Of a DNA stretch of 64,000 nt, positions 13,191 through 20,627 are shown piece after piece. The notes beneath the pieces are model-generated. The model was not told the DNA's origin. It worked only from the letters and a program-made list of their open reading frames with translations, and ran no database searches. The stretch's first letter is position 1. The number at the start of each line of letters is the position of its first letter. Location: the NCBI RefSeq assembly GCF_001677475.2, contig NZ_CP015229.1; one strand, given 5' to 3'. The translations under genes were made by a program, and so were the position numbers. The DNA is from Escherichia coli (lineage in GTDB: Bacteria; Pseudomonadota; Gammaproteobacteria; Enterobacterales; Enterobacteriaceae).

Positions 13191-16100
13191 ATGGGTAAAG
13201 GCAGCAGTAAGGGGCATACTCCGCGCGAAGCGAAGGACAACCTGAAGTCCACGCAGTTGCTGAGTGTGATCGATGCCATCAGCGAAGGGCCGGTTGAAGG
13301 TCCGGTGGATGGATTAAAAAGCGTGCTGCTGAACAGTACGCCAGTGCTGGACAGTGAGGGGAATACCAATATCTCCGGCGTCACGGTGGTGTTCCGGGCC
13401 GGTGAGCAGGAGCAGACACCGCCGGAGGGATTTGAATCCTCTGGCTCCGAGACGGTGCTGGGTACGGAAGTGAAATACGACACGCCGATCACCCGGACCA
13501 TCACGTCGGCAAACATTGACCGACTGCGTTTTACCTTCGGCGTGCAGGCACTGGTGGAAACCACCTCAAAGGGGGACAGGAATCCGTCGGAAGTCCGCCT
13601 GCTGGTTCAGATCCAGCGTAATGGTGGCTGGGTGACGGAAAAAGACATCACCATTAAGGGCAAAACCACCTCGCAGTATCTGGCCTCGGTGGTGGTGGGT
13701 AACCTGCCGCCGCGCCCGTTCAATATACGGATGCGCAGGATGACGCCGGACAGCACCACAGACCAGCTGCAGAACAAAACGCTCTGGTCGTCATACACCG
13801 AAATCATCGATGTGAAACAGTGCTACCCGAACACGGCACTGGTCGGCGTACAGGTGGATTCGGAGCAGTTCGGCAGCCAGCAGGTGAGCCGTAATTATCA
13901 TCTGCGCGGGCGCATTCTGCAGGTGCCGTCGAACTATAACCCGCAGACGCGGCAATACAGCGGTATCTGGGACGGAACGTTTAAACCGGCATACAGCAAC
14001 AACATGGCCTGGTGTCTGTGGGATATGCTGACCCATCCGCGCTACGGCATGGGGAAACGTCTTGGTGCGGCGGATGTGGACAAATGGGCGCTGTATGTCA
14101 TCGGCCAGCATTGCGATCAGTCGGTGCCGGACGGTTTTGGCGGCACGGAGCCGCGCATCACCTGTAATGCGTACCTGACCACACAGCGCAAGGCGTGGGA
14201 TGTGCTCAGTGATTTCTGCTCTGCGATGCGCTGTATGCCGGTATGGAACGGGCAGACGCTGACGTTCGTGCAGGACCGACCGTCGGATAAGGTGTGGACC
14301 TATAACCGCAGTAATGTGGTGATGCCGGATGATGGTGCGCCGTTCCGCTACAGCTTCAGCGCCCTGAAGGACCGCCATAATGCCGTTGAGGTGAACTGGA
14401 TTGACCCGAATAACGGCTGGGAGACGGCGACAGAGCTTGTGGAGGACACGCAGGCCATTCTCCGTTACGGTCGTAACGTCACGAAGATGGATGCCTTTGG
14501 CTGTACCAGTCGGGGGCAGGCACACCGCGCCGGGCTGTGGCTGATTAAAACAGAACTGCTGGAAACGCAGACCGTGGATTTCAGCGTCGGCGCAGAAGGG
14601 CTTCGCCATGTGCCGGGCGATGTTATTGAAATCTGCGATGATGACTATGCCGGTATCAGCACCGGCGGGCGCGTGCTGGCGGTGAACAGCCAGACCCGGA
14701 CGCTGACGCTCGACCGTGAAATCACGCTGCCATCCGCCGGCACCACGCTGATAAGCCTGGTTGACGGAAGTGGAAATCCGGTCAGCGTGGAGGTTCAGTC
14801 CGTCACCGATGGCGTGAAGGTAAAAGTGAGCCGTGTTCCTGACGGCGTTGCAGAATACAGTGTGTGGGGGCTGAAGTTGCCGACGCTGCGCCAGCGCCTG
14901 TTCCGCTGTGTGAGTATCCGTGAGAATGACGACGGCACGTATGCCATCACCGCCGTGCAGCATGTACCGGAAAAAGAGGCCATCGTGGATAACGGGGCGC
15001 ACTTTGACGGCGACCAGAGCGGCACGGTGAATGGTGTCACGCCGCCCGCGGTGCAGCACCTGACCGCCGAAGTCACCGCAGACAGCGGGGAATATCAGGT
15101 GCTGGCGCGCTGGGACACGCCGAAGGTGGTCAAGGGTGTGAGCTTCCTGCTTCGCCTGACCGTGGCAGCGGATGACGGCAGTGAGCGGCTGGTCAGCACA
15201 GCCCGGACGACGGAAACCACATACCGCTTCAGGCAGCTGGCGCCAGGAAATTACAGTCTGACGGTCCGGGCGGTAAATGCCCGGGGACAGCAGGGGGATC
15301 CGGCGTCGGTATCGTTCCGGATTAACGCCCCGGCAGCGCCTGCCACAATTGAACTGATACCGGGGTATTTTCAGATAACGGCGGTCCCGCGTCTTGCGGT
15401 GTATGACCCGACGGTGCAGTTTGAGTTCTGGTTCTCGGAAAATCAGATTACGGATATCCGGCAGGTTGAAACCACAGCCCGCTATCTCGGTACGGCGATG
15501 TACTGGACAGCTGCCAGTATTAATATCAGGCCGGGCCATGATTATTACTTTTATATCCGCAGTGTGAACATCGTCGGTAAATCAGCGTTTGTGGAAGCTG
15601 TTGGCCAGCCGGTTAATGATGCTGAGGTGTATCTCAATTTTTTTGAAGGGAAAATAAACAGCACCCTGCTGGGACAGGAGCTGAACGATCGTATTAATGC
15701 CTCGGCATTGCGCAGTGAAGTTGAGCAACTGGAGGATGAGATCAATCAGCAGATAGAGAGTGATATTGCTGAAGTGACCCAAAAAATCGGGGAGACAGAA
15801 AACAGCCTCACACAGCTGGTTGCGAAAAAAAATGATGAGCTGTCACTGGGTATATCACAGGTGAGCCAGAGAGTGGATAACGTCAGCAGCGAACTCACGC
15901 AGACGGTCAGTCAGAGTAATGAGGAGAATGCACGCCAGATAGCGCAGGTTCGCCAGTATGTGGATCAAAAAAGCAGTGAAATCATGACGACAACGGACCA
16001 AAAGCTGGGAGATCAGGAGGCCACCATCCAGCAGATACAAAAGGTTCAGACGGACACCAGTAATAACCTGAACAGTATGTGGGCCGTGAAACTGCAGCAG

Positions 16101-16445
16101 ATGCAGGATGGTCGCCTTTATATTGCGGGTATCGGTGCCGGTATTGAGAATACCCCTGACGGTATGCAGAGCCAGGTGCTGCTGGCGGCAGACAGGATTG
16201 CGATGGTTAATCCTGCGAATGGTAATACAACACCCTTGTTTGTGGCTCAGGGGGATCAGCTGTTCCTGAATGAGGTTTTCATGTCCAGGGCGACGATTGA
16301 TTTTGCGGAAATTACGGGGGTTCTTCGTTCTTCGGGATTTGAAGTCAGGGGACAGGGAGGCTGGGATCTGAGCCGGGAACTGAACTGCTTCAGGGTCGAT
16401 GATGAAAACAATGTCATTCGGGTGAGAATGGGCAGGTTACTCTGA
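13191..16445 (+). CDS. Host specificity / tail tip protein J (central tail fibre)
   Basis: 1084-aa ORF after K and I. Conserved gpJ-like N-terminal two-thirds, fibronectin-like middle region, and a divergent coiled-coil C-terminus. Confidence 0.9.
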
Positions 16446-16454
16446 GGAGCGAAT

Positions 16455-16826
16455 ATGTCATTGCAATATGGCTGGCAAATCATGGATGCAACGGGCAGGG
16501 TGGTTACGGATACGTCTGCAATTATGTGCAGACGTTTATTCTCATATCATGTTCCGATCATTGAAGCACTGGCATCAAATATCCCGTGGTCAGTGACATT
16601 TGGTGTCAGTTTTAACAATGGAACCCCATTCACACATTGTGTGACACGGAAGGGGATTACGGTGCCTTCCGGCAGGGTATGGTATCCGGTGGCACCGGAT
16701 ATTATCATCAACGGTAACAGCGTCACCTTAACCTATACAGCAAGACATGTTTCATATCCTGATGATTTGGGGTATCTCCTGGCTGTTGGCGGTGTGGATG
16801 TTCATTGTGGGGTTTACCACCGATGA
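16455..16826 (+). CDS. Hypothetical phage protein (unknown; paralogous to the N-terminus of the next gene)
   Basis: 123-aa ORF with RBS GAGGAG upstream. Visibly AT-richer than J. Confidence 0.5.
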   Translation: MSLQYGWQIMDATGRVVTDTSAIMCRRLFSYHVPIIEALASNIPWSVTFGVSFNNGTPFTHCVTRKGITVPSGRVWYPVAPDIIINGNSVTLTYTARHVSYPDDLGYLLAVGGVDVHCGVYHR

Positions 16827-17614
16827 GCGGTTATGGCATTCAGCTAATTAATGACTATGGACTGACAGTGGCAGATGCGGAAGATGTGAATTATGTTTTG
16901 CGAAGTGCCGGTCAGTTCAGTAATGGTCATTTTATCTCCGGCGGGAACACGACGAGCGCAATCAGTCTGATAACAACCGGGATGAACAGTCCTTTATTGT
17001 TTCTGAAGATGAATACAAATAATTCGAGGCTGACACAAAAAGCCGGGGTCAATAAGCTGTCCCCTGATTTTGTTAATCCCGGAACATATATATCGGTGAC
17101 AAGTATAGACGTGTTTAAATGGTGGAATATAAATATTGGCACGGTTCAGTATTATATTTTTGACAAGTGGATACCGCCGGAGCGAAGTTCATACGGTATG
17201 CAACTGTTTGATGGTTCAGGCGGAATTATATTTGATTCCGGGTGGTATTTTCTGAAATTACGGGATGTGAAATGGCTTGAACCGCAATATCCAAACCATT
17301 CAGGGCATGAAAGCGGTAGTAACTGGAGTAATGTCGGGCATGTTTCCGATGATGTCAATAACACAGCATTATCAATGCCTCTGGGCAGGGGCTGGATTGA
17401 GTCATCCTTACAGGGTGGATATTACTATAATGAGTGTTGTCATCTTGACGGTAACGGTAATCTCTATATATCCATAATACCGACAGGTGTTTATCTCGAT
17501 ATATCACCGACAGGCGGCTGGGTTGGCTCAATGAAAACCCAGGTCATGGTTGCGGATGTATCCGGCTTACCGACGAATTATAACCCTGTGGAGATAAGGA
17601 ACGTTAACGGTTAA
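16823..17614 (+). CDS. Hypothetical phage protein (unknown; internally repeated YG-Q-L motif)
   Basis: ORF 16805..17614; the probable start ATG 16823 overlaps the upstream stop (ATGA). Followed by a strong intrinsic terminator. Confidence 0.5.
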   Translation: MSGYGIQLINDYGLTVADAEDVNYVLRSAGQFSNGHFISGGNTTSAISLITTGMNSPLLFLKMNTNNSRLTQKAGVNKLSPDFVNPGTYISVTSIDVFKWWNINIGTVQYYIFDKWIPPERSSYGMQLFDGSGGIIFDSGWYFLKLRDVKWLEPQYPNHSGHESGSNWSNVGHVSDDVNNTALSMPLGRGWIESSLQGGYYYNECCHLDGNGNLYISIIPTGVYLDISPTGGWVGSMKTQVMVADVSGLPTNYNPVEIRNVNG

Positions 17615-17665
17615 GTGCTGTAACGAAATCACGGCAAAATGAAACAGAAAATCTGAATGTAATCA

Positions 17666-17694
17666 CAGCCCGCCGGAACCGGCGGGCTTTTTTG
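17666..17694 (+). terminator. Rho-independent terminator (GC stem-loop plus T-run)
   Basis: GCCCGCCGG-AACC-GGCGGGC followed by TTTTTTG. Confidence 0.7.
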
Positions 17695-17704
17695 TGGGGT
17701 GAAT

Positions 17705-19801
17705 ATGGCAGTAAAGATTTCAGGTGTCCTGAAAGACGGAGCGGGTGAGCCTGTCGTAAACTGTGCGATTGAATTGCGTGCCAGAAGAACCAGTCCGACA
17801 GTTGTGGTTAATATTGTGGCAACCTGTCTTACGGGAAGTGATGGCGGGTATACTATTAATGCTGAGCCGGGATTTTATGATGTATTTTTGTCCCGCACAG
17901 GGCATCCTCCTGTAAAGGCGGGGGAAATTTATGTTGCACCGACAGATGAGCCGGATACGCTGAATGCTTTTCTGGATGCACCAAAGGAGGGTGATTTACG
18001 CCCTGAGGTAATGAAGCGTTTTGAGGAAATGGTAAATACCGTTGTTCGCTTGTCTGAGCAGGTGGTCAGTGACAGGGAGAGAGCAGAAACAGCTGCTGAT
18101 GATGCAATTAATGCAGCAACATCTGCGGCGGGTAGTAAGGATGAGGCAGAAGAGCTAAAAAATCAGACACAGCAGAGCGCCGAAGCTGCAGCCGGAAACG
18201 CACAGCAGACGGCACAGGATGTGACGACAACCGCAACGGCCCGTGATGATGCGGAACGTTTTGCGAATGAGGCTGAAAACAGCGCACAGTCATCAGGCAC
18301 AGCGCGGGACGAATCAGTCGATGCCGCCGAACGCGCCCGCCTTTATCATAATGCCGCATCAGCAGCAGCGACCAGTTCAGAACTGTCGGCAAATGCGGCG
18401 CTGGGGCACAAAAACAGTGCCGCCGAATACGCCCGACAGGCTAAAGCCAGCCAGGATGCAGGTGCAGACAATGCGCAGGAAGCGAAACAGTTCAGGGATG
18501 AGGCACAGCAGATTGTTGATGACCTGAATGCAACAAATGCCAGCACGACAGAAAAAGGTCTGGTGCAACTCTGTAGTGATACGGACAACGACAGCGAGGA
18601 ACTGGCTGCCACGCCAAAGGCTGTCAGACTCGTCATGGACGAGACGAAAACAAAAGCGCCACTGGACAGCCCGGCTTTCACCGGCATCCCAACCACCCCA
18701 ACCCCACCGGATGATGCCGCCGGTCTGGAAGCAGCGAACGCAGCGTTTGTGCGCAAACTGCTTGCTGCGCTGGTTGGCTCATCGCCGGAAGTTCTGGACA
18801 CCCTGAACGAACTGGCAGCGGCGCTGGGCAATGACCCGGAGTTTGCGACCTCAATCATGAATGCGCTGGCAGGCAAACAACCGCTTAATGACGTCTTAAC
18901 GGCAATCAGCGCACTGACGCAACGGTCAGATAATCTTCTGTACTTCAATACGGACGGGAATGCCTCACTGTCTCTGCTGTCAGAGAAGGGCCGCGCATTA
19001 CTGGCGCATGACACAGCTGAAGCCATGCGCACGGAGCTTGAGCTGAAAGCAGCTGCGACGATGGAACCCCAGAGTGATATTCGCGACCGCACATCCGGCA
19101 GGCTGGCGCTGTCCGGGATGTATGGGTTTGGACAGGCATTCACCAGCGCCGACGCTCTGTCATTTAACGGACAGGCTGATTTCGTTGAGTGGTTGAAGAA
19201 AGTCACGCCGGGGCGGTATGCGGTCAGTATTACAGACTCCTCGCAACTGCTTACCGGTACCACGCAATTTAACGGCATTATTGATGTGATGTGGTCACCG
19301 TACGCCAACAGTGAATCTGATACAGTCCGCAAATTTAAAACCCTGATGTGTTACAACCAGTATTATCAGGGTGAACACTGTATTCACTATATGCAGTACC
19401 GGTACAACGACAGTGATAACAGCTGGAACATGTCATCGCGGGTAGTTGTATACGACGGAGATTCTCTCGCTTATTTATTATCGCGGTTATCCGGTAATGG
19501 TCCGTTCTCATATTACCAATACCCGGCCGTCGGTGTGCCGATTATGGCGGTATATCAGGGAGAAAGTTTTGGTGAAAATGCTTCTCTGGGACTCGGTGAT
19601 ACTGTGCCGGGTTCCCGTCTTGGTCCTCTGGCCATGAGTGCACCGGTTAGTGATACAGGGACATACGCATCCTCACCGCAGGTTGTGATTGGCGGTGCCG
19701 GTGAATACAACTTCCCCGGTCGTTACATGGCGCTTTCGGGCTTAGGTAACAATTATGGTACTCAGCGTGGCTTTATCGGTCTTTTTGTACGCATTGAGTA
19801 A
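17705..19801 (+). CDS. Side tail fibre protein (lambda Stf-like N-terminus)
   Basis: Starts MAVKISGVLKDGAGEPV, matching the conserved Stf N-terminal domain. Has a coiled-coil middle and a divergent C-terminal receptor-binding region. Confidence 0.85.
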   Translation: MAVKISGVLKDGAGEPVVNCAIELRARRTSPTVVVNIVATCLTGSDGGYTINAEPGFYDVFLSRTGHPPVKAGEIYVAPTDEPDTLNAFLDAPKEGDLRPEVMKRFEEMVNTVVRLSEQVVSDRERAETAADDAINAATSAAGSKDEAEELKNQTQQSAEAAAGNAQQTAQDVTTTATARDDAERFANEAENSAQSSGTARDESVDAAERARLYHNAASAAATSSELSANAALGHKNSAAEYARQAKASQDAGADNAQEAKQFRDEAQQIVDDLNATNASTTEKGLVQLCSDTDNDSEELAATPKAVRLVMDETKTKAPLDSPAFTGIPTTPTPPDDAAGLEAANAAFVRKLLAALVGSSPEVLDTLNELAAALGNDPEFATSIMNALAGKQPLNDVLTAISALTQRSDNLLYFNTDGNASLSLLSEKGRALLAHDTAEAMRTELELKAAATMEPQSDIRDRTSGRLALSGMYGFGQAFTSADALSFNGQADFVEWLKKVTPGRYAVSITDSSQLLTGTTQFNGIIDVMWSPYANSESDTVRKFKTLMCYNQYYQGEHCIHYMQYRYNDSDNSWNMSSRVVVYDGDSLAYLLSRLSGNGPFSYYQYPAVGVPIMAVYQGESFGENASLGLGDTVPGSRLGPLAMSAPVSDTGTYASSPQVVIGGAGEYNFPGRYMALSGLGNNYGTQRGFIGLFVRIE

Positions 19802-20400
19802 TGAGGAAATCAGGCATGAAAATCAGAGCGGTGAAAGGCATCAGAAACGCACATTATCTTGAAAATGGTGCGATTGACTGCGAGGTGTTATTTGAAGGTG
19901 AAACGGAGTTCGCCATGTATACCGCCATACAGGATGATACAGCCCCGACAGGCCAGCACATCTGGCAGGAGCTGCAAAGCGGGAAATGGGGCGAAATCGT
20001 CCCGTTCACCGTCACGCCTGAACTTATTGCAGCGGCAAAGGATGCCAAAAGGCGGGAGATTGAGGCATGGCGCGACAGTCAGGAAAACGTTGAGTTTATT
20101 TTCACGTTTGATGGTCGTCGTTTTGATGGTGGAAAAACCTCGCAGTCACGCCTTGCGCCCGTGGTTGCAACAGCACAGGCCGGACTGCTTCCGGAGGGTT
20201 TTTTCTGGACTGATGCGGATAATAACAACGTCGTACTGACCAGGGAGAAACTTATTGCGCTGAACGATGCCATGATGGTGGCCATGGTGGCGGAGGGCTT
20301 TAAAATCCACGAACGTCAGCGGGAGATGAAAGAGGAGCTGAGTAGCCTCGAGGATTTACACTCAATCAGGAAGTTGCTCGTTAACTCAGAAAAAATTTGA
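19801..20400 (+). CDS. Putative tail fibre assembly protein (atypical Tfa-like)
   Basis: 199-aa ORF overlapping the stf stop and last gene before the tRNA. Assigned by position; it does not closely resemble canonical lambda Tfa. Confidence 0.45.
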   Translation: MRKSGMKIRAVKGIRNAHYLENGAIDCEVLFEGETEFAMYTAIQDDTAPTGQHIWQELQSGKWGEIVPFTVTPELIAAAKDAKRREIEAWRDSQENVEFIFTFDGRRFDGGKTSQSRLAPVVATAQAGLLPEGFFWTDADNNNVVLTREKLIALNDAMMVAMVAEGFKIHERQREMKEELSSLEDLHSIRKLLVNSEKI

Positions 20401-20539: not shown

Positions 20540-20627
20540 TGGCGGAAGCGCAGAGATTCGAACTCTGGAACCCTTTCGGGTCGCCGGTTTTCAAGACCGG
20601 TGCCTTCAACCGCTCGGCCACACTTCC
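20540..20627 (-). tRNA. serT: tRNA-Ser (anticodon UGA)
   Basis: Reverse complement reads GGAAGTGTGGCCGAGCGGTTGAAGGCACCGGTCTTGAAAACCGGCGACCCGAAAGGGTTCCAGAGTTCGAATCTCTGCGCTTCCGCCA: 88 nt with long variable arm and encoded CCA. Confidence 0.95.

Follow-up and report, generated by a model that had tools for sequence, protein, structure and literature searches.

A two-gene cassette after gene J of a lambda-like Escherichia coli prophage is probably an exchanged receptor-binding module with FepA as the predicted receptor

We analyzed a 64,000-nucleotide stretch of an Escherichia coli genome (contig NZ_CP015229.1), hereafter called the window, in which a lambda-like prophage carries two small genes between gene J and the side tail fibre gene. 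The last ∼51 codons of J together with these two genes, ORF1 and ORF2, most likely form a receptor-binding module that was exchanged horizontally and that replaced the receptor domain of J and lom. By homology to the virulent phage IME253, and given the correlation between the allele at this locus and the receptor used, the ferric-enterobactin transporter FepA is the probable receptor. Receptor-binding proteins (RBPs) encoded separately after gpJ and exchanged as cassettes are already known, also in temperate phages. What we present as new is a FepA-associated allele of this kind in a lambda-like prophage, with both junctions of the replacement mapped.

RESULTS

A coupled gene pair directly follows gene J

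Direct reading of the sequence confirmed two ORFs of the lengths given in a preliminary description (123 and about 263 aa), joined by an ATGA overlap. ORF1 (16455..16826, + strand; 123 aa) is predicted to fold as a small beta-sandwich. ORF2 (16823..17614, + strand) encodes 263 aa from its ATG; it is the predicted RBP, and its model is all-beta with two units. In the mechanical ORF list, ORF2 reaches back to a TTG at 16805; we took the ATG as the start because M-x-x-YG opens every homologue. The ATGA combines the stop of ORF1 with the start of ORF2, and overlaps of 4 to 8 nt were seen in 9 distinct related loci. Upstream of ORF1, a Shine-Dalgarno sequence read from the DNA, GAGGAG (16444..16449, + strand), overlaps the J stop codon and is separated from the ATG by 5 nt. 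The distance between J and ORF1 is 9 nt in the window and ranges from −4 to 42 nt across related loci.

The strong terminator previously said to end the pair was located as an intrinsic terminator-like hairpin with a T-run (17667..17694, + strand), the hairpin itself (17667-17688) having 9 pairs, 8 of them G-C. No promoter-like site was found on the + strand between 16000 and 18000. Predictions of signal peptides and transmembrane (TM) segments, which the preliminary description had proposed as a check, detected no such segment in either ORF1 or ORF2 (maximum KD19 of 1.18 and 1.05). Another terminator-like hairpin, with 9 pairs, 5 of them G-C, and without a proper T-run, lies inside ORF1 (16512-16535, + strand) and probably arose by chance.

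J is mosaic and ends in a short tip

Gene J (13191..16445, + strand) encodes a mosaic central tail fibre/tail tip protein of 1084 aa. Compared with J of the lambdoid phage PhiR49_2, it is 96-100% identical over aa 1-750 and 48-76% identical over aa 751-1033, where homology stops. In PhiR49_2, J extends for another ∼200 aa, which correspond to the lambda-type receptor domain, and lom comes next. The J protein of the window lacks this ∼200-aa C-terminal receptor-binding domain and has 51 residues after aa 1033, and lom is absent from the slot. The earlier statement that this slot usually holds lom is true of lambda and of the closest lambdoid relative.

The 51-codon J tip (16290..16445, + strand) is proposed to be the end on which the separately encoded proteins dock. 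Its C terminus carries a signature, GGW...D.NN.V.R...G.L, that is common to cassette-bearing phages. When we searched 50,697 phage genomes with the J tip by tblastn, significant matches were obtained only in BREN6, VLCpiS8a, and VAC2, all of which have the cassette. That the J tip travels with the cassette is, we propose, a new observation.

On the right-hand side, positions 17658-17700 of the window are 93% identical to lambda 19603-19645, within the lom-stf intergenic region. The terminator therefore stems from the former lom gene, and the replaced segment has its right-hand junction here. Together, the end of J homology on one side and the lambda match on the other indicate that the J receptor domain and lom were swapped for the J tip, ORF1, and ORF2, with the old terminator kept.

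A second mosaic junction lies inside J at window position 15440 (∼aa 750), where identity to J of PhiR49_2 falls from 96-100% to 48-76% and GC content falls from 0.60 (GC3 of 0.72) to 0.49 (aa 751-1033). As both drops coincide, it seems that the shaft of the fibre and its tip module differ in history. The pair had been described as AT-richer than the flanking tail genes. Its GC content is indeed low (0.446, compared with 0.596 over J aa 1-750 and a window average of 0.523), but the drop starts already inside J, at ∼15440. The value for the pair is close to those of the IME253 cassette (0.41) and of the IME253 genome (44.2%). A 582-aa open frame runs antisense to J (13791-15539, − strand) in its GC-rich part, where GC3 is 0.72; this frame is most likely a by-product of composition and not a gene.

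In the six complete E. coli genomes that contain the cassette, PGAP calls gpJ a pseudogene ("incomplete; missing C-terminus"; for example, L003 4798-8010). Since the ORF is intact and ends in the tip common to cassette phages, this call is probably an annotation artefact of the shorter J architecture.

The pair follows J in prophages and in virulent phages

At the DNA level, we found the pair in 6 of 5426 complete E. coli genomes, with 99.3-99.5% identity and always as two hypothetical proteins after gpJ. In strain GB089, the cassette-bearing prophage adjoins yodB/zinT, a different site from that of the window prophage. In the window, a tRNA-Ser gene (anticodon TGA; 20540-20627, − strand) lies just past the tail-fibre assembly gene and a hyaA-like gene for the hydrogenase-1 small subunit lies beyond it, in the region from 20973 onward, starting at about 21050; thus, the end of the prophage adjoins the tRNA.

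In the phage collection, the virulent Rtpvirus phages IME253, Rao1, ZL19, TR3, and phiA2-1 had the two-gene unit immediately downstream of gpJ, at 70% nucleotide identity to the pair. Among named relatives, the genes that follow gpJ in IME253 are closest, with 65% amino acid identity for ORF1 (APU93260) and 75% for ORF2 (APU93261). More distant copies occur in Klebsiella Webervirus phages, including VAC2, and in Brenneria phage BREN6. The ORF2 family is small, with 23 clusters among 5.8 billion proteins, all from Enterobacterales; its sources include phages of Klebsiella, Serratia, Phytobacter, Pantoea, and Brenneria.

We examined the gene context in Rtpvirus phages, VAC2, BREN6, Serratia and Phytobacter prophages, three metagenomic contigs reached via distant ORF1 homologues, and 15 IMG/VR loci. 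The pair directly followed a J-like gene in all of the 27 related loci examined, including those of strictly virulent Drexlerviridae. The order was the same in every locus: a J-like gene, an ORF of ∼117-130 aa, and an overlapping ORF of ∼241-283 aa, the latter two matching the respective family profiles. The ORF1 homologue always abutted the ORF2 homologue, on its upstream side.

A natural swap at the homologous locus links the cassette to FepA

For the genes after gpJ in small siphoviruses, the term "bona fide RBP loci" has been used, with alleles that correspond to the terminal receptor and with IME253 listed as the FepA case (Maffei et al. 2021, PMC8594841). That IME253 requires FepA and TonB was established by knock-outs, complementation, and adsorption assays (Li et al., PMC6499177), and phage Rtp is LptD dependent (PMC8594841; PMC13035648). 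We compared the two phages and found that their J proteins are 98.3% identical up to aa ∼1082 and that the flanking DNA is 97% and 90% identical. The unrelated stretch starts with the last ∼30 codons of J and continues with rtp44/rtp45 in Rtp or, in IME253, with ORF1/ORF2, a lipoprotein gene, and two further small genes. Rtp and IME253 thus represent a natural swap, in which 97%-identical phages differ essentially only at this locus and use LptD and FepA, respectively, as the receptor. The swap junctions are sharp, and the cassette is shared by lambdoid prophages and Drexlerviridae with a discontinuity in GC content, as expected for horizontal exchange. In the tail-tip block of Rtp-like phages, we also observed HNH homing endonuclease genes, between the I and J homologues in IME253 (L001 1848-2336) and between the L and K homologues in Rtp (L011 21464-21979).

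The window locus shares the following attributes with such RBP loci: it lies directly downstream of gpJ, its J lacks the lambda-type C-terminal domain, and its allele matches that of a receptor-typed phage. In published datasets (including PMC8594841), alleles at this locus with >30% identity over full coverage share the same receptor. As ORF2 is 75% identical to the IME253 protein over 100% of its length, well within this range, we predict that the receptor is FepA and that infection would be TonB dependent. The literature that we found on FepA-binding RBPs in Drexlerviridae or lambdoid phages consists only of the IME253 receptor assignment and of locus-level statements.

The ORF2 model resembles a solved phage RBP

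Profile- and structure-based searches, which the preliminary description had also proposed, gave contrasting outcomes: the profile libraries yielded no function, whereas the ORF2 model matched a solved phage RBP. Scans of both proteins against Pfam, NCBIfam, and PADLOC returned no match (none in Pfam even at E≤10; 0 PADLOC families at E≤1). PHROGs yielded families of unknown function only, apart from a weak partial match to a "membrane associated protein" family, and the sole match of ORF1 was phrog_2427, also of unknown function. Nothing meaningful was retrieved when the PDB sequences were searched with both family profiles. ORF1 had phmmer matches to proteins of 1000-3000 aa (P0037, P0038, and P0043), which we rejected as repeat proteins in which many weak stretches are summed.

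An AF2 model of ORF2, computed from a 24-sequence alignment, was all-beta and of moderate confidence (pLDDT of 77, pTM of 0.79). This predicted model matched the LptD-binding RBP of phage Oekolampad (Bas18; PDB 9RPT chain C) at a level of similarity indicative of the same fold. When compared with predicted viral structures by Foldseek, ORF2 resembled about 20 uncharacterised phage proteins of similar size. Sequence comparisons of ORF2 with DUF6453 (PF20051) were negative, with an hhalign probability of 3% and no significance for the single sequence or for a 13-sequence alignment. The link of ORF2 to a proven RBP is therefore structural in kind, by way of a predicted model. The preliminary description had set homology to a known structural component against its own reading of the pair; such homology appeared at the level of structure, in the 9RPT chain C fold, and not at the level of sequence. 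We present as new that a FepA-associated RBP is predicted to have the fold of an LptD-binding RBP, even though the RBP families of this locus are described as unrelated in a recent survey. DUF6453 proteins are also encoded on genomic contigs of E. coli.

A hairpin motif opens each predicted unit

The motif previously noted at the N termini of both ORFs and inside ORF2 was confirmed as three 15-aa copies. They are YGWQIMDATGRVVTD in ORF1 (aa 5-19; 16467..16511, + strand), YGIQLINDYGLTVAD in ORF2 (aa 4-18; 16832..16876, + strand), and YGMQLFDGSGGIIFD in ORF2 (aa 124-138; 17192..17236, + strand), the last of which opens the second unit within the most conserved block. The pattern YG.Q..[DN]..G....D has exactly 3 matches in the six-frame translation of the window (starting at 16467, 16832, and 17192) and did not occur in 100 shuffles. 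Its residues correspond to invariant or near-invariant columns in both the ORF1 and ORF2 families.

Profile comparison of ORF1 with the second ORF2 unit gave an E value of 4e-6 and a probability of 87%, with the similarity limited to ∼18-25 residues. Unit-by-unit comparisons of ORF1, the ORF2 halves, and the thirds of Rtp44 likewise gave a signal over the ∼18-aa hairpin only. The sequence support for the proposal that the two genes are paralogous and share a duplicated domain is therefore confined to the unit-opening hairpin. Paralogy is also consistent with the fold class. In the ORF2 family, the most conserved block (aa 108-141) surrounds the second hairpin, and the most variable segments (aa 38-50, 83-95, and 196-201) are plausible candidates for receptor-contact loops.

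DISCUSSION

We propose the following course of events for the window prophage. J, ORF1, and ORF2 would be transcribed together in the late tail operon, with ORF1 and ORF2 translationally coupled. ORF2 would be the RBP at the end of the central fibre, mounted noncovalently on the distal tip of J. ORF1, a one-unit relative of ORF2, would act between the trimeric J tip and ORF2. It is most likely an adaptor or a second subunit, because it always occurs with ORF2, is coupled to it, and shares the opening hairpin of both ORF2 units. During infection, the side tail fibres (Stf/Tfa, 17699-20400) would bind first and reversibly, and the tip complex would then bind an outer membrane TonB-dependent transporter, most likely FepA, leading to DNA ejection. 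In the published cryo-electron microscopy (cryo-EM) study of the T1 tail tip, the distal end of J was not resolved, and the study hence offers no attachment model.

Comparison with known systems

The arrangement corresponds to the small-siphovirus type (Drexlerviridae, Dhillonvirus, Queuovirinae), in which J has no receptor domain and a separate RBP sits on its distal tip. IME253 is the nearest case, with the J tip, a 123-aa ORF, a 4-nt overlap, a 265-aa ORF, three motif copies, and low GC content. It differs in being virulent, in having a J that is only 28% identical overall to that of the window, and in carrying on the opposite strand, directly after the pair, a gene for a Cor-like 61-aa lipoprotein that the window does not have. 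The LptD-binding RBPs (that of Bas18, 9RPT_C, and Rtp44; PF20051/DUF6453), which are accompanied by the exclusion lipoprotein Rtp45, have no detectable sequence similarity to the pair. Their locus holds a single 310-aa gene on the opposite strand, whereas the window has two co-oriented genes, and both the receptor, LptD, and the sequence of the J tip are different. Phage T5 resembles the proposed module of the window in having a separately encoded RBP, pb5, on the tip of the central fibre with a TonB-dependent transporter as the receptor, and the T5-like phage H8 uses FepA. T5 also has an exclusion lipoprotein partner, Llp, of a kind present in some cassette relatives. With lambda, the window shares the genomic place and the terminal receptor-recognition task, a J that is lambda-like up to aa 1033, and the conserved terminator; in lambda, however, the LamB-binding domain is part of J itself, in place of a 51-aa tip and two separate genes without lom.

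Lipoproteins with the lipoboxes LAGC, LISC, and VSGC are encoded directly after the pair in IME253 (L001 6953-7138, −) and in two metagenomic or IMG/VR loci (L013 6162-6452, +, and L029 3848-4078, −), respectively. That of IME253 matched the Cor superinfection-exclusion family weakly (E of 0.002), and these lipoproteins may be FepA-directed exclusion proteins. No cognate lipoprotein was found in the window, either by tblastn with the IME253 homologue or by a lipobox scan after ORF2. This absence counts against our preferred reading. Exclusion lipoproteins next to the RBP are described as frequent but not universal at the locus downstream of gpJ (PMC8594841).

Alternative explanations

The module may act at the tail tip as proposed and yet recognize another receptor, such as CirA, Fiu, FhuE, IroN, or a different outer membrane protein, a possibility that we take seriously even though we do not favor it. 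Relative to the IME253 protein, 25% of the ORF2 positions are changed, and the most variable segments of the family are plausible contact loops. Moreover, the family extends to phages of Klebsiella, Serratia, Phytobacter, Pantoea, and Brenneria, and T5-like RBPs with ∼30% identity bind different receptors (preprint 10.64898/2026.04.02.716166). The level and full-length extent of the ORF2 identity, well inside the range in which receptors are shared, speak for FepA. As for ORF1, a role as an assembly chaperone is rather unlikely but conceivable; ORF1 would then leave after helping ORF2 to fold or to attach to J and would not be a component of the virion. Its small size, its strict co-occurrence and translational coupling with ORF2, the frequency of dedicated chaperones among fibre or adhesin genes, and the fact that LptD-type loci need just one RBP gene all agree with such a role. 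ORF1 nevertheless had no Pfam or NCBIfam match to known tail-fibre chaperones, and it lies upstream, not downstream, of ORF2.

The preliminary description had offered two roles for the pair, a tail-tip accessory or a lysogenic-conversion function (superinfection exclusion or defence). The former gained support, since the pair is homologous to an RBP locus after gpJ and the ORF2 model resembles a solved RBP. The latter found none, and we consider it highly improbable that the pair is a moron in the lom slot, although lambda has lom at the same position and the low GC content, the terminator at the end, and the rarity among E. coli genomes would suit one. Indeed, the pair occurs in strictly virulent phages and always after J, no promoter-like site was found on the + strand between 16000 and 18000, neither protein has an export signal or a PADLOC match, and the predicted fold of ORF2 is that of an RBP. 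Furthermore, its terminator was inherited from the lambda lom-stf spacer, and its low GC content fits a Drexlerviridae-like source. In one related locus (L012), lom lies downstream of the pair, which shows that lom and the pair are not simply alternatives. We give hardly any credence to a role of the pair as an attachment or assembly factor for Stf, which the adjacent stf gene in the window and the Serratia prophage might suggest. In Drexlerviridae, the lateral fibre gene lies kilobases away on the opposite strand, while the pair stays with J; in the window, the terminator separates the pair from stf, and Stf is served by an assembly gene of its own further downstream (19801-20400; DUF4376).

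A possible common design of FepA- and LptD-type RBPs

Rtp44 (L011 26752-27687, − strand) contains three similar stretches that could open units: QGIYIDLNDG at aa 3, QGIYVADSTD at aa 114, and PGINIFNSNN at aa 208. The last of these is in register with the ORF2 motif YGMQLFDGSGG. This pattern suggests that Rtp44 is built of three units, although it falls short of statistical significance. As Rtp44 has three hairpins and so do ORF1 and ORF2 combined, the pair may represent an RBP of three units that is divided between two chains. As a speculative extension, which we offer with little confidence, ORF1 and ORF2 would form one receptor-binding body of three related ∼120-aa beta-sandwich units, each opened by a YG.Q..D..G....D hairpin, and this pseudo-threefold cap would match the trimeric J tip. 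The end of J (..V.D.NN.V.RV..G.L) would be a similar hairpin, and the single-chain LptD RBPs (DUF6453) would be a fused version of the same design. If this were true, FepA-type and LptD-type RBPs, so far held to be unrelated, would share one ancestor and a docking principle, and the latter could be used for phage re-targeting.

Implications

Our preferred reading, an exchanged tail-tip module directed at FepA, gives two "hypothetical proteins" a function and corrects a habit of PGAP, in that the J protein called incomplete is probably complete, its receptor binder being encoded separately. The RBP fold match, the conserved J tip, and the hairpin motif offer starting points for engineering receptor specificity. 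A receptor module that virulent T1-like phages exchange would thus circulate in lambda-like prophages of E. coli as well, and the host range of the phage is predicted to be set by FepA, an iron-regulated TonB-dependent transporter.
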